A model generated the notes under the pieces. The model did no database searches and was not told where the DNA came from. It saw only the letters and a list, made by a program, of their open reading frames with translations. Below, in pieces: positions 1-12,923 of a DNA stretch of 13,356 nt; within the stretch, counting starts at the first letter, position 1, and each line of letters starts with the position of its first letter. A program made the translations under genes and the position numbers. This DNA is from Candidatus Methylomirabilales bacterium. Lineage in GTDB: Bacteria; Methylomirabilota; Methylomirabilia; Methylomirabilales; CSP1-5. The stretch lies in NCBI GenBank assembly GCA_046758505.1, contig JBHIAH010000077.1, forward strand, positions 1 through 13,356. The letters run 5' to 3'.

Positions 1-469
1 GCTCCTCGTACAGCTGGTAGCCGCCGCCGTTGTGAATCCAGGCCAGCCCGAGGTGGGCGTCCTGGCCAAAGACGGGCCCGGTGCCGAAGAGCGAGGCGAT
101 CTTGCTCTTGCCGTACCAGTAGACGGTCACACTGTGCGCCCCGTCGAGGACGCCTTTGTGGACGGCGTCCTGCACGCGGAAGGCCTTGACCACTGCGCCG
201 GAGACCAGATAGTCGATCTTGAGGCTGCCGCCCGACATCTGGTTCACGCGATTCACGTACTGCACGGCGTACTCGTTGAAGATGTCCTTGGCGCCCCAGG
301 CGCCCTGCATCTTGAGTACGACCGGCCTGGCCCTGACGACATTCGGGAAGCTCACCGTTGCCGCGCCGGCCGCCGCGGTCGCAACCGCGGCTTTCTTCAG
401 AAACGAACGCCGTGATACGCCCTGGGCCCCCTGTGGCTCTTGCTCCGGTTTCTTCTGCGTCTCGTTCAT
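1..469 (-). CDS. TRAP transporter substrate-binding protein (DctP fold, TakP/FcbT1-like) with Tat signal; 3' end runs off the window
   Basis: Hand translation from ATG at 469: MNETQKKPEQEPQGAQGVSRRSFLKKAAVATAAAGAATVSFPNVVRARPVVLKMQGAWGAKDIFNEYAVQYVNRVNQMSGGSLKIDYLVSGAVVKAFRVQDAVHKGVLDGAHSVTVYWYGKSKIASLFGTGPVFG...WIHNGGGYQLYEE. Twin-arginine SRRSFLK; MSGG.LKI, DAV..G.LDG.H, YWYGK and W...GGG..L motifs of TakP-type SBPs; RBS GGAGGGAGG at 472-480. Confidence 0.93.
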   Translation of the reverse strand, partial: MNETQKKPEQEPQGAQGVSRRSFLKKAAVATAAAGAATVSFPNVVRARPVVLKMQGAWGAKDIFNEYAVQYVNRVNQMSGGSLKIDYLVSGAVVKAFRVQDAVHKGVLDGAHSVTVYWYGKSKIASLFGTGPVFGQDAHLGLAWIHNGGGYQLYEE

Positions 470-1394: not shown

Positions 1395-1473
1395 CTGCCC
1401 CTCCATCACGCCACGCACCCAGCAGGCACTGACGTCCCCCCCCGGGCCTGTCCCATGGGCCGCGCGGTGCGCG

Positions 1474-2397
1474 CTACCCCAGAATAGCCCGGAGCGCCGC
1501 CTCCAACGCGGGATGGCGAAAGGTGTAGCCGGCCTCTCGAATGCGCGTGGGCAGGACCCGCTGGCTGGCGAGTAAGGCGTCACCAAACTCGCCGAGGATC
1601 AATCGGAGGCCAAAGGCCGGGGCGGGGAGCAGCGCGGGGCGGTGCAGCAGCCGCGCCAGCGTCTGGGTGAACTCCCGATTGCGGACAGGAGCCGGGGCGG
1701 TGACGTTGACCGGGCCGCTCACGCTCGGATGCTCGATCGCGTGGAGGATGATGCCTACGACATCATCCAGGTGGACCCACGGCACCCACTGCTTCCCGTT
1801 CCCGAGCGGTCCCCCGAGGCCCAGCCTGAACGGGAGCAGCATCTGCTTGAGCGCCCCGCCTCCGCGGCCCAGGACGAGCCCGCTGCGCAGCATCACCACG
1901 CGCACGCCTAACGCCTCCGCCCGTCGGGCCTCGGCCTCCCACCCCTGGCAGACCTCTGCAAGAAAGTCTTGGCCCGGACCGGCCTGTTCGGTCAGTTCCT
2001 CCTCCCCGCGGCTGCCGTAATACCCGACGGCCGAGGCACACACGAGCACCCCGGGCTTTGACTTCGCCTCGCCGATGGCCTCGACCAGATGCCGCGTACC
2101 GATAATCCGACTGTCCCGGATGGCCCGCTTCTTCAGCGCGTTCCACCGTCCGGCCACACTCTCGCCCGCCAGATGCACCACCGCGGCGGCCCCCTGGACG
2201 GCCGCCACGGGGGCGGGCTCCAGCTTTGGCCGCCACCGATACGCCTCCTTCACCCCGGGCACAAGCGCCTTGGCCCTGTCCGGACGCCGGCTGAAGAGAG
2301 TGAAAGTCAGCCCCCGCTCCTTCAGGGTTGCGCACAGGGCCTGACCGACGAACCCTGTCGCGCCCGACACCAACACGGGCGTTGGAATCTCTGCCAC
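1474..2397 (-). CDS. TIGR01777-family NAD(P)-dependent epimerase/oxidoreductase (YfcH/SDR39U1-like)
   Basis: VLVSGATGFVG Rossmann motif, VHLAGESV..RW...K..IRDSR, ASAVGYYG, FLAEVCQGWE, GLGGPLGNGKQWVPWVHLDD, GPVNVTAP, LLASQRVLP; GTG start with RBS GGAGGG at 2405-2410. Confidence 0.96.
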   Translation of the reverse strand: MAEIPTPVLVSGATGFVGQALCATLKERGLTFTLFSRRPDRAKALVPGVKEAYRWRPKLEPAPVAAVQGAAAVVHLAGESVAGRWNALKKRAIRDSRIIGTRHLVEAIGEAKSKPGVLVCASAVGYYGSRGEEELTEQAGPGQDFLAEVCQGWEAEARRAEALGVRVVMLRSGLVLGRGGGALKQMLLPFRLGLGGPLGNGKQWVPWVHLDDVVGIILHAIEHPSVSGPVNVTAPAPVRNREFTQTLARLLHRPALLPAPAFGLRLILGEFGDALLASQRVLPTRIREAGYTFRHPALEAALRAILG

Positions 2398-4233: not shown

Positions 4234-6423
4234 TCAGGGCAAAGCGTGGGCGAGAAGCTCTGCGATGTGTTTGACCTCGATGGGACTCCCCCGCTTCAGC
4301 AACCCACCCCGAATCTGGAGGAGACAGCCGGGGCTGTCCAGGGCCACGACCCGCGCCCCGGTCCGCTCGATCGCCGCGATCTTCCGCCCGAGCACTTCGC
4401 CGGCAACATCCGGATAGTCCGCGGAGAAGTGACCCCCAAAGCCGCAGCACTCCCCGATCTCGTCGAGTTCCCGCAGTTCGTACTGCGTGAGCATGCGGAG
4501 GAGCCGGCGCTGGGGCTCCTGGACCCGGAGCCCCCGAAGGGCACTACACGAATCGTGGTAGGCGAGCGGAATCTTCTCACCGGTGGCGTCCCCCAGGGTC
4601 CCGTCCCCGAGCCCCAGCACCTCGACCAGATACTCGGAGAAGTCGAGCGTCCGGGCCGCGAGGGACTCCCCCCGCCCTTCCCACAGGGGGTCTCCCTTGA
4701 CGAGCTTGGGGATGTACTGCTTCAGGGTGATCCCGCAGGGAGGCGTGGCGGTCACGATGGGCTCTCCCGGACGTGCCTCCAGGGCCGCGATCAGGGCCCT
4801 GGCCATCCGGCCCGCCGTCTCCCGGTGCCCTTCATAATAGGCCGGCAGGCCGCAACAACTCTGGGCCTTCGGGTAGTGCACGGTGACCCCATAGTGATTC
4901 AAGACCTTGACCACTGCCTGGCCGATCTCCGGGTAGAACTGATCGATGAGGCAGCTCCCGAAGAAAGTCACCGTCCGCGTCGCCTCCCCCCGGGCCGGCA
5001 CGACTTCCCCGATCCGGCTTCGGAGGGGACGGGCAGCCACCGCCGGCATCGCCCGGATGCTGGTGAGGTTTCTCAGAGGCCGGGGGAGCTCGCGAAGCAC
5101 CCTTCGTCCCCGGGTGAGGGGCAACTGCGCGATGGCCCCCAGCCGAAGGGCCAAATGGAAGAGGCTCGGGTTGGGGAGGATCTTGTCGAGAAACAGGCGG
5201 CGGATCCCCTTCGCCCTCTTCTCGTGCTCCTCCTGTTGCACGATCCGGGTCCGCATGGCGACGATCATGCGCGGGAGGTCGATCTCGACCGGGCAGGCAT
5301 CGGCACAGGCCCGACAGAGCAGGCAGGCCTCCTGCGGGACCGCCGCCGCCGCCCAGCCGTGGTGAAACGGAGTGATCACGGTCCCGATGACGCCGGTGTA
5401 GATGTGGCCGAATACGTGCCCGCCCACGACCCGGTACGTCGGACAGACGTTCGCGCACGAGGCACAGCGGATGCAGTACAAGGCCTCCCGGAACTCCGGA
5501 TCTTCCCGCATGGCCCGCCGGCCGTTATCCAACAGGACGATATGCATTTCCGCTGCGGCGGGGCCGCGGAACTCCCCCGGCCTGGGGATTCGGCTCGCCC
5601 CCGTCTTGCCCGTGATGAAGGTGGTGTAGACCGTGAGCTGCTGGGCCGTGGCCGTCTTGGCCAGGAGCTCGAGGTGCGACGTGGCGTCCTCGATGGTCGG
5701 CACGAGCTTGTCGTAGCCTAACAGGGCCACATGGATGGGCGGAAGGCTGGTGACCAGCCTGCCATTCCCCTCATTGGTCACGATGATGACGGTGCCGGTC
5801 TCGGCCACGGCGATGTTGGCCCCCGAGATTCCCATCCCGGCGCTCAGGAACTTCTCCCGGAGCTCTTCCCGGGCCAGGCGGACCATCAGGCCGATGTCGG
5901 TAGGCACCTCACGCCCCAAGGCCTTGGAGAAGATGCCGGCCACCTCCTCCTTACTCATGTGGATACACGGCATGACGCTGTGGGACGGGTGTGCGCCCGC
6001 CTGCTGGATGATCCATTCCCCCAGGTCCGCCTCCAACGGGGTAATGCCAAGCTGCTCCAGGTGCCGGTTGAGCTCGATCTCTTCGGACACCATCGACTTG
6101 GACTTGACCACCAGCTCCACTCCCCGCTCTCGGGCGAGCGCACCGATATATCGGTTGGCCTCCTCGGCCGTTTTCGCTTCGTACACGAAGGCGCCGACCC
6201 GCCTGGCCGCGTCCACGAACTGCCCTGCGAGCTCCGGGAGACGCTCGATCGCGTCTTCTTTCATCCGGCGAAGGCGCGCTCGGTGTTCTTCGTAGTCGAG
6301 GACGGCGAGGGCATTTTTCCTGGCCGTGCGGTAGGCGGTCCCGAATCGGCCCAGGTTTTCCCGGATCCGAGGATTCGCCAGGGCGCCCGCCGCCCGACGC
6401 CGAAACTCGTCCTGGCGGGTCAT
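4234..6423 (-). CDS. lutB: LutB-LutA fusion (LUD domain, 2x[4Fe-4S] ferredoxin, two CCG domains); lactate dehydrogenase large subunit type
   Basis: VKSKSMVSEEI, DLGEWIIQ, GISGAN..VAETG...VTNEGN, VLLDNGR, CIRCASCANVCP and CLLCRACADACP, then FFGSCL...QSCCG...PPCG and YHDSC...ECCGFGG...SPGC. Confidence 0.93.
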   Translation of the reverse strand: MTRQDEFRRRAAGALANPRIRENLGRFGTAYRTARKNALAVLDYEEHRARLRRMKEDAIERLPELAGQFVDAARRVGAFVYEAKTAEEANRYIGALARERGVELVVKSKSMVSEEIELNRHLEQLGITPLEADLGEWIIQQAGAHPSHSVMPCIHMSKEEVAGIFSKALGREVPTDIGLMVRLAREELREKFLSAGMGISGANIAVAETGTVIIVTNEGNGRLVTSLPPIHVALLGYDKLVPTIEDATSHLELLAKTATAQQLTVYTTFITGKTGASRIPRPGEFRGPAAAEMHIVLLDNGRRAMREDPEFREALYCIRCASCANVCPTYRVVGGHVFGHIYTGVIGTVITPFHHGWAAAAVPQEACLLCRACADACPVEIDLPRMIVAMRTRIVQQEEHEKRAKGIRRLFLDKILPNPSLFHLALRLGAIAQLPLTRGRRVLRELPRPLRNLTSIRAMPAVAARPLRSRIGEVVPARGEATRTVTFFGSCLIDQFYPEIGQAVVKVLNHYGVTVHYPKAQSCCGLPAYYEGHRETAGRMARALIAALEARPGEPIVTATPPCGITLKQYIPKLVKGDPLWEGRGESLAARTLDFSEYLVEVLGLGDGTLGDATGEKIPLAYHDSCSALRGLRVQEPQRRLLRMLTQYELRELDEIGECCGFGGHFSADYPDVAGEVLGRKIAAIERTGARVVALDSPGCLLQIRGGLLKRGSPIEVKHIAELLAHALP

Positions 6424-7061
6424 GGCAGGACCCCCTTTCCGGTGGCGGGGAGGAGAAAGACATGAAGCTCCCGGGGCCCATGGACGCCGATGGTCAGCAC
6501 CCGTTCAATGTCCGCGGTGCGACTGGGACCCGTGACCCACGAGAGATAGGAGGATTGGCCCTGCACCTGCGATTTCAGGATCAGGTACCGCGTGAGGAGC
6601 AAGCCGTCCTCCAGAGAGTCCACGACCGCATCCCGGGGGAGGAGGGCCACATGGATCTCCGGAAGCATGCTGAGCAGACGCCCGTCCGCCTCGTCCAGAT
6701 GCACGAGGATCGAGCCGGTCTCGGCCACCCCCAAGGCCGCCCGGGTCACCCCGATCCCGGCCTGCAGGAGCGCGTCGGGACTCGGGCCGGCCGCCAGGCC
6801 AATGCTCGCCTCGGCCAGCGCGCTGTCAAGATTCAGCGCGGTGGCAAGGTCGGCGTCGGCCGTCTGGCAGAAGGTCACCCCCTGCGCCTTGGCCAGGGCG
6901 GCAATGGAGAACGCCACCGCCTGCGGATCGGTCACGTCCCGGATCGCCCCCCCGACCCGCTCGACCTCGGCCACAAATCGAGACAGGATAGAGGACTGAC
7001 GGCGACGGCTCTCCTCCCAGGCTTGGCGAATCCGCCCCTCCAGTTGCTTGAGGACAGGCAC
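6420..7061 (-). CDS. lutC: LutC/LldG (YkgG)-family LUD-domain protein
   Basis: GVAETGS, RLLSMLPEIHVALL and the diagnostic VTGPSRTADIERVLTIGVHGPRELHV; ATGA overlap with the downstream gene; RBS GGAGGG before the GTG start. Confidence 0.95.
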   Translation of the reverse strand: MPVLKQLEGRIRQAWEESRRRQSSILSRFVAEVERVGGAIRDVTDPQAVAFSIAALAKAQGVTFCQTADADLATALNLDSALAEASIGLAAGPSPDALLQAGIGVTRAALGVAETGSILVHLDEADGRLLSMLPEIHVALLPRDAVVDSLEDGLLLTRYLILKSQVQGQSSYLSWVTGPSRTADIERVLTIGVHGPRELHVFLLPATGKGVLP

Positions 7062-8880: not shown

Positions 8881-9264
8881 ATGGACCCACAAGAGACGAA
8901 AAGTGCGGTGCGGCTCGAAGAGGACCGACCCCAATTCCTGCTCCGCCTCTTCCTCACCGCGGTTACCGGGTTCAATATCATCCTCACCTCTGCCCAGGTC
9001 CTCGAGGGTAACTGGGGATGGGTCATCACCCTGGGGGTGGTGGGGGTGCTGGTCCCGGGGACGGTCCCCTTTCTCCGAGTCATTCAGGGCTATAAAGAAG
9101 GGAGGGTCCCGCTGTCATGGAGGGAGCTGCTCGCCTTTGGCATTGGAGCGGTCGACGCCGTGGCCATCATCACCCGGTGGTCCGATGGTCTGGAGGTCGT
9201 CTCGTGGGTCTCGGTCTTTCTCATTTCAAGTTTTCTGGCTTTTCTCCTGCTCGCCGAAAGCTGA
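8881..9264 (+). CDS. Hypothetical membrane protein, ~127 aa, about 4 TM helices
   Basis: Four hydrophobic segments; fills the gap between the divergent sigma gene and the convergent VWA gene. Start uncertain: no clear RBS at 8881, alternative ATG 8782. Confidence 0.7.
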   Translation: MDPQETKSAVRLEEDRPQFLLRLFLTAVTGFNIILTSAQVLEGNWGWVITLGVVGVLVPGTVPFLRVIQGYKEGRVPLSWRELLAFGIGAVDAVAIITRWSDGLEVVSWVSVFLISSFLAFLLLAES

Positions 9265-9386: not shown

Positions 9387-10151
9387 TTAGATGATCCGTT
9401 GGCGGCGGACTCGGCGATCCACGATGTCCCGGATCCACTTCCAGAAGCGCTTCTCTTCTTTCAGGGTCGGCCGGTTCTCGAGCTGCTCATGCCACCCCTG
9501 CATGACCTCCGCTTCCACTGGCCAGACCCGGACCCGCTGCCGGGGGATCTTGCGTTCCCAGGCGGCGGCGACCTTCGGGGACGGGTAGAGAACCCGGATG
9601 GTGACGTTTCGCGCCAGGAATTCGAGGGGCGAGACGTCAATCTCCTCGTAGGCCGCCTGCTTCACCTTTCGCCCCTTTCTCCCCGCGACCTCGGGGACGC
9701 CATCCGTGACGATGACAACGGTGATGGGCGCCAGCAGCAGGTTCTGCTTTTGGACGGTTTCCGAGATGCGCTTGAAGAAGGCGTTAAAGTCCGTCAGATA
9801 GTTTCCCCGGGTGCTGAAGAGCTCCGTCAGTTTGGTCTTGATCTCGCCGGCGCTCTTCCGCTCGAACACCTGGATCGGGAAGAAGGCCTTGGGCTCATTC
9901 GGCACATCCCCCCCGATCGAGCCCACAAAGAGGGCCCGCGGCACCTCCAGGCCCCCCGTGCCGTGGAGGTGGCCGTAGAGGTAGTAGGAGAGGAAGCGGA
10001 GAGCGTCCTGAAACTGGGGTGTCCGGGCGAAGGAGCCGCTGACGTCCACCCCCACAAAGAGCGAGAGGCGGGGCTTCTCCGCTTCGGTAGAGGTACAGCC
10101 CGGCGCCAGGAGTAAGAGCGCGACGAGCAGGATGCGAATCCGGTACGTCAT
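9387..10151 (-). CDS. Putative lipoprotein with VWA/MIDAS-like domain, 254 aa
   Basis: ATG 10151 with RBS CAGGAG; signal MTYRIRILLVALLLLAPG-C (lipobox-like); MIDAS elements FVGVDVSGS, YLTDF and VIVTDGVP. Confidence 0.82.
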   Translation of the reverse strand: MTYRIRILLVALLLLAPGCTSTEAEKPRLSLFVGVDVSGSFARTPQFQDALRFLSYYLYGHLHGTGGLEVPRALFVGSIGGDVPNEPKAFFPIQVFERKSAGEIKTKLTELFSTRGNYLTDFNAFFKRISETVQKQNLLLAPITVVIVTDGVPEVAGRKGRKVKQAAYEEIDVSPLEFLARNVTIRVLYPSPKVAAAWERKIPRQRVRVWPVEAEVMQGWHEQLENRPTLKEEKRFWKWIRDIVDRRVRRQRII

Positions 10152-10168
10152 GGGTATCTCCTGGGCCC

Positions 10169-11413
10169 CTATCGGCCCCTCGCCGTGCCGGAGGCGTGGC
10201 TTTCGGCGCGCGCGAGCTTGACTAACTCTCCCGTCTCCATGAAGGCGTGCAGCGAATTGAGCGGCAGTCGGAACAGATGCCGCCCGGCGACGAGGACCAT
10301 GAAGAAATTGATGGTGCCGGCGATCAGCTGGAGCGGGGGGAGGACGTACGCCTCGAGGAGCTGCGTCCCGGTGGTGTGGAACCACTCAATGTCCGCCTTG
10401 ATCTGGTTGAGCATCTCCTTGGTCCAGGAAGCGACCGGCCCCGGGGCAGATCGTTCGCCCACCGGCGCTGCCGTGATGCCCTGCCCGGAGATGATTGCGC
10501 GCAACGTCGGCGTCCCGTACCCCGCAAAGAGGAACCAGGTCATCCCGCGGATTCCGATCCAGGCGAGCGTCGAGATCAGAAGCACCGCCGCCACACCGAT
10601 CCGGACCTGTCCGCCACTCTGCAGGGCGAGCACGGGGGTGATGGCGTCGACCAGCTCGCGGTAGAGGAAGACGACCTCGAAAAACATGACGAACAGCTCC
10701 ACCAGCACCATCTGGACGATGTCTTTCCAGTTGCGCTGCTTGATGGCCTCGACCATGACTTGGAGACACGCGAAGCTGCCGGCAATGAGCAGGAAGAGGA
10801 CGAAGAAGAGGGCCGGCTGCAGGAGGGGGTGCGGGCCACCCCCCACAAGGTCGCTGGCGATGTCGGAGACCATCGGGTAGAGGGTGTAACTGAAGACCCC
10901 GGCCTCCAGGAGCGACCAGAGCAGGGTGAGGGCAACGGCGATCCACGGAATGCCGGGCCGCAAGGAGCTCTGCGTGGCCCGCCTGATCAGGGAGAAGGGA
11001 AGCGTGACCAGGTCGGCGAGGGCGAGGTAGATGCCGGCGGCGAGAATGCGGATCAAACCCCAGACCCACCCGGCCGACAGGAAGAGGGCCCGGAACATGC
11101 CGATCCAGAACATCCCGATCGCCCGACCGCTATCCCACCAGGTGGTGAGGACCACGGCGACGAACTGGTGTCGTCCTCCCCGGAACGGGAGGGTGTAGAT
11201 GGAGAACATGGTGCACCACATGCCGGCGACGACATGGAGCGCCGGGAGCAAGAAGAGCGTGAGCTTCAGGGTCCCCCCCAGGGGGGAGGAGAAATCCCAC
11301 AGGAAGCCCACGATGGCCGCCTGAACGGGTGGGATCCAGGCGATGGGCAAAGTCAGGATCCGGAAGAGCAGCCGCCATTCGGGCGGCAGCGCGGACTCGA
11401 TATTCGGAATCAT
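10169..11413 (-). CDS. Uncharacterised polytopic membrane protein, 414 aa
   Basis: RBS GGAGG; about 8-10 hydrophobic segments; stop 17 nt before the VWA gene start; family not recognised. Confidence 0.88.
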   Translation of the reverse strand: MIPNIESALPPEWRLLFRILTLPIAWIPPVQAAIVGFLWDFSSPLGGTLKLTLFLLPALHVVAGMWCTMFSIYTLPFRGGRHQFVAVVLTTWWDSGRAIGMFWIGMFRALFLSAGWVWGLIRILAAGIYLALADLVTLPFSLIRRATQSSLRPGIPWIAVALTLLWSLLEAGVFSYTLYPMVSDIASDLVGGGPHPLLQPALFFVLFLLIAGSFACLQVMVEAIKQRNWKDIVQMVLVELFVMFFEVVFLYRELVDAITPVLALQSGGQVRIGVAAVLLISTLAWIGIRGMTWFLFAGYGTPTLRAIISGQGITAAPVGERSAPGPVASWTKEMLNQIKADIEWFHTTGTQLLEAYVLPPLQLIAGTINFFMVLVAGRHLFRLPLNSLHAFMETGELVKLARAESHASGTARGR

Positions 11414-11521
11414 GTGCCATCCTCCGAGGGTCGGTGTCCCCCCACCCTCTTACGAGTTTGCGACTGATCGCGGGCAGATCGCACTGCCGCCTACCAGGAT
11501 GCCCGCGTAGCCTGGACATAT

Positions 11522-11537
11522 AGCAAGTTTGGGGCCA
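11522..11537 (-). promoter_or_regulatory. Sigma54 (-24/-12) promoter for the membrane protein + VWA unit
   Basis: TGGCCCC-AAAC-TTGCT (GG-N10-GC; consensus TGGCACG-N4-TTGCW), about 110 nt upstream of ATG 11413. Confidence 0.65.
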
Positions 11538-11809: not shown

Positions 11810-12514
11810 TTAGAGGGGAGCACGGTCCGGAGGGGATTCGGGGAGGGGGGACGCCTCGCCGCGAAGGCGGTCCACCAGCGTTCCGATCAGGGCAACCTCT
11901 GATGGCCCGGGATCGAGAAACTGCACGCCCATTCCGCCGACGACACTCGGCCCCCCTTCTCCCTCGCGCATCCACACCACTGTCGCGGGGACCGAGAGAG
12001 CGTCGGGGACGGTCGGCAGCGCGAAGTGAAGCATGAGCTCCGTCCCCGGCGGAGCCGGGTGGCTGATCGCGACGAACATCCCGCCCCGGCTCAGGTTGAC
12101 ACAGGTCCCCCGGGCCGCAACTCCTGCCTGCGTGCACTCGACGCCGAACCGAACCGGGACCCGCGCCTCGGGGTGGGGTTTCGCCTGGGACAACCACTGT
12201 CGCACCAGTGCTGGATCGACCGGCTTTTCGAAGGCCATACCATGGGGAAATATGATCCGCATATCGGTCCGTGTCCCTCGGCCAACCGAGACGATGATGC
12301 CGCGCAGGGGATCGCCCTGCCAGACCCGGACCGACACCGGCGTGCTGAGGGGAAGACGCTTGGGCAGTAGGAGTGCAAGTCCGCCGGCGCTCACGCACTG
12401 AGTCCTCCCGGCAAACTGTGTCGGTAAGGGCCACCCGGGGGTCGGGGCGGCGCACAGCACGGGCATGTACGCTTCGAAGCGGGGATAGCCAGCCATCGTC
12501 GGGTGGGTAGACAT
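11810..12514 (-). CDS. Tandem PilZ-domain protein; C-terminal domain TIGR02266-like
   Basis: Domain 1: YPRF...CVSAGG...HGMAF. Domain 2: ARVPVRF...NLSRGGMFV...PPGTELMLHFALP...ATVVW.R...GMGVQF. RBS GGAGGG. Confidence 0.88.
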   Translation of the reverse strand: MSTHPTMAGYPRFEAYMPVLCAAPTPGWPLPTQFAGRTQCVSAGGLALLLPKRLPLSTPVSVRVWQGDPLRGIIVSVGRGTRTDMRIIFPHGMAFEKPVDPALVRQWLSQAKPHPEARVPVRFGVECTQAGVAARGTCVNLSRGGMFVAISHPAPPGTELMLHFALPTVPDALSVPATVVWMREGEGGPSVVGGMGVQFLDPGPSEVALIGTLVDRLRGEASPLPESPPDRAPL

Positions 12515-12848: not shown

Positions 12849-12923
12849 TGGTGGCGGTGGGAGGACTTGAACCTCCGACAAAGGGCTTATGAGACCCCTG
12901 CTCTGCCCCTGAGCTACACCGCC
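12849..12923 (-). tRNA. tRNA-Met (CAT), probably elongator; CCA encoded
   Basis: GGCGGTG TA GCTC AGGGGCA GAGC A GGGGT CTCATAA GCCCT TTGTC GGAGG TTCAAGT CCTCC CACCGCC ACCA, a 75-nt cloverleaf. G1-C72 argues against initiator; G4-C69/G5-C68 argues against the E. coli-type Ile2. Confidence 0.95.

Follow-up and report, generated by a model that had tools for sequence, protein, structure and literature searches.

The locus described here raises the question of whether a polytopic membrane protein and an exported vWA protein, encoded back to back, form a single system and, if they do, how the two meet and what the pair does. In the window (the whole 13,356-nt stretch of DNA that was analysed), the membrane gene (11413-10169, encoding the 414-aa P0001) lies on the minus strand and is followed, after an intergenic gap of 17 nt, by the vWA gene (10151-9387, encoding the 254-aa P0002). 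Both open reading frames are real and each has a ribosome-binding site readable from the sequence, at 11420..11425 (minus strand) for the membrane gene and at 10158..10162 (minus strand), within the gap, for the vWA gene, which bears out the tight linkage of an earlier, preliminary description. Each gene is single-copy in the source genome. The cassette is a real, conserved, and uncharacterised envelope unit with a testable proposed docking site.

Conservation and surroundings of the pair

The vWA gene directly follows the membrane gene in 99 of 102 loci (some of these being duplicates), and in the remaining three, the contig ends no more than 107 nt from the membrane match. Among 151 genomes of the source organism's own phylum, the membrane gene is present in 55 and the vWA gene in 43, with 43 of 45 vWA matches adjoining a membrane gene. 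Among 151 genomes of Gemmatimonadota, the membrane gene occurs in 33, all of which also carry the vWA gene (adjacent in 32 and split at contig ends in one), and one more genome holds a broken vWA gene only. Co-location of the homologues, on which the preliminary description had staked its reading, is thus seen in all three counts. Pairing is kept across several phyla but is not strictly obligate, as 25 solo membrane copies and two orphan vWA copies were found, all within a single family of the phylum. The cassette is about 40% identical across phyla, and the trees of the two proteins correlate (mirror-tree r 0.91, 97 pairs), a sign of joint inheritance and no more. Of 151 genomes from the phylum to which the Binatia record belongs, a single one gave a match, and in the tree the Binatia copies branch from within the group of the window's relatives, which suggests transfer as a cassette. 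No third gene is conserved across lineages, the other neighbours being lineage-specific, and the description of the pair as a stand-alone two-gene system holds. Six longer matches that might have been fusions are read as wrong-frame or frameshifted gene calls, and neither protein has a plasmid match.

The flanks are unrelated to the pair: a PilZ protein lies upstream, and downstream are a small membrane ORF, an ECF sigma/anti-sigma pair, LUD proteins, and an aldehyde dehydrogenase. The PilZ gene (11810-12514, minus strand), whose product has two PilZ stretches (TIGR02266), is the near upstream neighbour of the sigma54-type site discussed below, and a tRNA-Met(CAT) gene (12849-12923, minus strand) lies about 1.3 kb upstream of that site. 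Convergent with the vWA gene is a hydrophobic ORF of about 127 aa (8881-9264, plus strand) with no family match, present only in six close loci. The stretch at 4234-7061 (minus strand) holds a LUD-domain gene, then a 729-aa fusion of LUD, 4Fe-4S, and CCG parts, then the aldehyde dehydrogenase. No MoxR AAA+ gene is found among the 11 ORFs of the window, as the preliminary description had noted, nor among the recurrent neighbour clusters shown, which were clustered rather than each scanned against Pfam. Elsewhere in the source genome, contig C95 (3679-8613) carries a run of genes whose products resemble, by eye, a ClpX-like ATPase, a JAB-like protein, an acetyltransferase, a ThiF/E1-like protein, and an AAA ATPase.

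The preliminary description had also placed the pair behind a sigma54 promoter. The predicted -24/-12 site (GG-N10-GC; 11522..11537, minus strand) sits some 110 nt ahead of the membrane gene and is conserved in 25 of 27 close loci versus 1 of 68 other loci and 0 of 95 on the opposite strand, seven loci with less than 250 nt upstream having been left out of the count. The source genome encodes rpoN and contains 108 sigma54-type sites, several or many of which precede genes that look PilZ-like or pilus-like by eye. The putative promoter thus stands for the window's clade but not beyond it, the strict pattern being found in 0 of 31 paired Gemmatimonadota loci. Between 8600 and 11900, no clear terminator and no clear sigma70 site was found.

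Co-occurrence with motility or pilus systems is not apparent: the vWA gene is present in 0 of 15 FlhA (flagellar) genomes and 5 of 21 RcpC (Tad) genomes, against 43 of 151 overall, the genomes being related and not independent. In one genome, an RcpC/CpaB (Tad) gene (G104:C87:345284-345586) lies about 7.6 kb from the pair, a placement that is not general.

The two proteins

Homologues of P0001 (10169..11413, minus strand) number at least 1427 in the 90% database, where 8000 candidates were scored, and 405 among 50% representatives. They come from Methylomirabilota, Nitrospirota, Elusimicrobiota, FCPU426, Binatia, Gemmatimonadota, and others, with all named ones annotated as 'hypothetical'. Searches of Pfam and NCBIfam (30 members each), PADLOC, and PDB sequences (115-row profile) returned no match, so that, with P0002 below the Pfam cut-offs (see below), the earlier statement that neither gene falls into a characterised family is upheld. 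The model of P0001 is all-helical, with fair local confidence (pLDDT) but low confidence in the overall arrangement (pTM), and fold searches with this low-confidence model returned no match to a solved fold and none to voltage-gated channels; P0001 is a candidate for a new fold. A comparison of its N- and C-terminal segments gave a low-probability signal of an internal repeat (E 0.0012, with a far lower probability in the reversed control), which is a hint only.

The model includes helices of 69 and 51 residues. Residues 81-149 (10967..11173, minus strand) form a single long, basic, Trp-rich amphipathic helix, predicted to lie on the cytoplasmic face, with a hydrophobic moment of about 1.0-1.9 and flanking loops of net charge +2.2 and +1.7; a further long amphipathic helix spans 326-356, and more hydrophobic helices lie at 51-76 and 357-377. 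Residues 157-297 (10523..10945, minus strand) contain, by model, hydropathy, and conservation, four predicted transmembrane helices and the invariant residues E170, E246, R252, and R289, all kept in 133/133 paired and 25/25 solo sequences. Loops 179-197 (net -2.0) and 253-273 (net -1.6) are acidic and predicted to lie outside, and loops 77-97, 140-156, 220-231, and 298-312 are basic and predicted to lie inside. Hydropathy and charge thus point to four secure membrane helices within 157-297, with the total number of crossings uncertain. The acidic loop 253-273 (10595..10657, minus strand), predicted to be periplasmic and carrying E253 and D256, is the proposed vWA docking site.

P0002 (9387..10151, minus strand; 1006 matches in the homologue search) is modelled with high confidence as a Rossmann-like fold with a central six-stranded sheet, and its top matches in Foldseek and VIA are nearly all vWA domains. 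The complete MIDAS set of the preliminary description is present, with DxSxS at residues 36-40 (10032..10046, minus strand), T120 at 9792-9794, and D150 at 9702-9704; D36, S38, S40, T120, and D150 are conserved in 124-127 of 127 sequences. Nothing rises above the gathering cut-off in Pfam VWA, VWA_2, and related families, VWA_2 being matched by 3 of 114 homologues with a best E of 0.016; P0002 is a new subfamily of the known vWA fold.

A signal peptide with an imperfect lipobox runs to Cys19 (10095..10151, minus strand), and, in line with the exported, lipobox-bearing protein described earlier, a lipobox Cys is found in 76 of 87 distinct N-termini of homologues, lipidation being predicted from this pattern only. 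The other 11 lack the Cys but retain the signal peptide, indicating that a soluble form persists beside the same membrane partner. Where the Cys is present, it lies 15-17 residues ahead of G34 in 67 of 76 cases, which makes for a short lipid tether. In E. coli, an Asp at position +2 governs the sorting of lipoproteins between the inner and outer membranes; by that rule, the rarity of +2 Asp (2 of 76 predicted lipoproteins), together with LolA in the genome, means that P0002 could be destined for the outer membrane.

Several arginines of P0002 are highly conserved (R186 and R206 in 127/127, R247 in 121/127, and R249 in 122/127). The last two belong to a D245-x-R247-x-R249 tail (9405..9419, minus strand; conserved in 121-122 of 127), which closes the last helix and is proposed here as both a contact with and a relay to the membrane subunit. 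Residues 26..247 of the model align with integrin alphaM 130..318, placing residue 247 near 318.

Solo copies and the proposed docking loop

In the source organism's phylum, 25 of 70 membrane matches are full-length with no vWA gene nearby; all belong to family f9, within whose paired copies they nest on long branches. Eleven of them lie in genomes that are 86%-97% complete and hold no vWA match at all, and since the membrane copies there are intact, the vWA cap appears dispensable in those genomes. Eleven solo loci (for example, L112:7219-8583) carry a 455-aa gene that, from its N-terminal motif, we take to encode a MurC/Mpl-like ligase. This gene starts at the stop codon of the membrane gene in 10 solo loci, and in paired L099 and L127, the order is membrane-vWA-MurC-like, which is consistent with in-place loss of the vWA gene. 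The neighbour makes a link to the cell wall possible.

These copies allow a comparison of what is retained once the vWA partner is gone. The 78 positions with a conservation of 90% or more among 133 paired sequences were scored in the 25 solo paralogues, with identical sequences merged and partial membrane sequences (profile span <370, including L141) excluded from both the tree and the test. Mean retention was 0.49 at 12 predicted outer-loop positions versus 0.89 at the 66 others (0.92 at 25 other non-membrane positions), a post hoc comparison in that D256 had been noticed before the test was made. The p-values (about 1e-5) overstate the case, since all 25 solo sequences are kin within one family and the label changes only twice. 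D256 is present in 132 of 133 paired and 2 of 25 solo sequences, with a further 11 solo sequences carrying Glu, so that 13 of 25 stay acidic; T259, G273, Q265, L254, E253, and A257 fall to 0.2-0.44. D94, R78, R81, and R108, like the four invariant core residues, are kept in 25/25, which indicates that the core is still under selection. All of the long-branch paired copies L039, L070, L072, L006, L076, and L077 keep D256. The selective loss of loop 253-273 in solo copies points to this loop, with D256, as the proposed docking site. The other outer loop, 179-197, loses little charge in solo copies, and the non-loop residues K339, M291, and I173 also drift. Mutual information between P0001 and P0002 was at the level of noise (Neff 63).

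The solo-copy comparison suggests that P0001 and P0002 are in physical contact, and it lends indirect support to the ligand-binding subunit on a membrane protein proposed in the preliminary description, in which the membrane protein might be a transporter, channel, or transducer. A direct complex, counting both modes of docking considered below, is reasonably probable, and more so if the scaffold reading is added.

Proposed docking and function, and comparison with known systems

Animal vWA domains sense ligands for, or tune, membrane proteins, as in integrins and alpha2delta, and by analogy, the pair probably works like these; on the features tested, it falls outside the MoxR-vWA, alpha2delta, and integrin families. 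P0002 is 11%-14% identical to integrin alphaI domains (alphaM-beta2, alphaL) but is a separate small lipoprotein with neither a beta-propeller nor a betaI domain, its tail is basic rather than bearing a Glu for a second MIDAS, and its partner is polytopic. With CaV alpha2delta and Cachd1, it shares an extracytoplasmic tethered vWA domain, an intact MIDAS, and a predicted polytopic partner with a conserved outer-loop Asp; unlike them, it is a 254-aa single domain without Cache domains, P0001 lacks a voltage-gated-channel match, and contact between D256 and the metal is only hypothetical. McaA of Magnetospirillum is likewise a periplasmic bacterial vWA protein, one that depends on its MIDAS to function at the inner membrane, but it is one protein with a single transmembrane segment and a cytoplasmic tail, serving magnetosome positioning, a context with no equivalent here (PMC9512821). 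In contrast to the MoxR-vWA systems (RavA-ViaA, NorQ-NorD, and Bat operons), the two-gene cassette exports its vWA protein and has no linked AAA+ ATPase. No two-gene bacterial counterpart was found in the literature covered, which mostly excludes subscription papers; the large tables supplied with PMC7159879 might include the family.

The N- and C-termini of an I-domain lie opposite its MIDAS, and with a short lipid tether, this geometry would set the termini-bearing base of P0002 at the membrane. Upon ligand binding to alphaM-beta2, helix alpha7 shifts and the following residues 315-322 touch the partner subunit (PMC13155356); the alignment of P0002 with alphaM would then place the D-x-R-x-R tail where the internal ligand of alphaM relays to its partner. 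Two paired loci, L125 (MIDAS D-T-T-R-D) and L126 (D-S-A-T-D), have a decayed MIDAS, yet their partners keep D256 and their vWA proteins keep R186, R206, R208, R247, and R249, which makes it likely that the MIDAS faces outward; paired L164 shows D256N with an intact MIDAS. Were D256 to complete the MIDAS, decay of the one and loss of the other should coincide, and in these three loci they are uncoupled. The outward orientation is thus suggested by fold geometry and the two decayed loci.

The reading that we tentatively put first is a stand-alone cassette in which the vWA protein forms a base-docked cap. It would dock via its basic, termini-bearing base on the acidic loop 253-273 (D256), the outward MIDAS would bind an acidic ligand, and the ligand signal would pass to the charged four-helix core of the membrane protein, which is predicted to work as a gated ion path or transducer. 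Oligomer formation and gating are suggested by the buried Glu and Arg, the long helices, and the low overall confidence of the monomer model, with the gating step drawn only from the invariance of the buried charges and the lack of an output domain. Against this reading stand the failure to find an output domain or a regulated gene, the persistence of the membrane protein in solo copies, the D256N of paired L164, and the outer-membrane destination that the lipoprotein could have; the buried Glu/Arg pairs may also be structural.

It is possible, though somewhat unlikely, that the vWA protein is instead an alpha2delta-like auxiliary subunit, with D256 completing the MIDAS metal and the vWA domain stabilising, assembling, or tuning the membrane protein rather than sensing an outside ligand. 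CaV2.2 D122 is reported to complete the MIDAS of alpha2delta-1 (PMC6231325), and both the near-invariance of D256 in paired copies (it being nearly the most eroded position in solo ones) and the conservation of MIDAS-face residues across phyla, as expected of a conserved partner as ligand, would fit. Such docking leaves the invariant basic base without explanation and sits poorly with a tether that sets the base, not the MIDAS, beside the anchoring membrane, as well as with L125, L126, and L164; the uncoupling in these loci, the tether, and the alphaM alignment together narrowly favour the base-docked cap. An unlikely reading is that of a membrane scaffold, in which P0001 oligomerises through its long amphipathic helices to shape or mark the membrane and is positioned by the vWA cap, with neither ion flux nor signalling. 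The 69- and 51-residue helices, their strong amphipathicity, and the poor monomer score suit this, as does the requirement of McaA for its periplasmic vWA MIDAS to localise at curved membrane (PMC9512821); but McaA is one fused polypeptide, no conserved cytoskeletal or organelle genes stand among the recurrent neighbours, and a scaffold has no need for invariant buried Glu and Arg.

P0002 could also be an outer-membrane or surface adhesin, with P0001 as its dedicated export, maturation, or anchoring factor, an idea that accords with the rarity of +2 Asp, with LolA, and with the genes after sigma54-type sites that look, by eye, like pilus or PilZ genes. MIDAS adhesins are known in bacteria (PMC11003981), yet high cross-phylum conservation is unlike that of a diversifying adhesin, some vWA forms lack the lipid Cys, the membrane protein keeps its conservation once its supposed cargo is lost, and co-occurrence with Tad pili or flagella is lacking; this account we consider less likely than a scaffold. 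It is highly improbable that the pair is a piece split off from a MoxR-vWA chaperone system and working in trans. A MoxR-family ATPase is encoded in the source genome, but it adjoins another large gene (1453 aa) that looks BatA-like by eye. Although vWA domains often partner MoxR-type ATPases (PMC7159879), P0002 is exported and hence apart from a cytoplasmic ATPase, and an AAA+ cluster is absent among the recurrent neighbours.

A bolder form of the base-docked cap, which we rank between the scaffold and the adhesin in probability, is a minimal bacterial integrin-like receptor-channel. Here, the outward MIDAS would grip an acidic ligand of the cell wall or cell surface, such as the carboxylate of a peptidoglycan stem peptide, pull on the last helix and Arg tail, and so gate an oligomeric ion pore of new fold. 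Were this true, the pair would belong to a set of several independent bacterial cassettes, each made of a membrane protein and an exported vWA protein, that share this principle. The cassette is small and self-contained, and the comparison singles out D256, E253, R247, R249, D36, E170, E246, and R289 for mutation.

A second cassette was observed in the same phylum (L179:100-408, 417-1445, and 1438-2268, plus strand; also L178, L180-L188, L190-L200, L202-L207, and L209) and encodes a 103-aa coiled-coil protein, a 343-aa four-helix/coiled-coil membrane protein, and a different vWA-like lipoprotein, none of the three having a Pfam family. It was not found in the source genome by tblastn, and homology between its membrane protein and P0001 was not detected (negligible probability, from a shallow alignment). 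The second vWA type is matched in 21 of 151 genomes, and the 20 with strong matches all hold a P0001-type gene too, a count confounded by kinship. The orphan P0002-type vWA genes lie in tandem behind this second type, without a membrane gene, in L123 (5966-7626, minus strand) and L124 (5227-6729, plus strand), where the tandem is divergent from a response regulator/histidine kinase pair.
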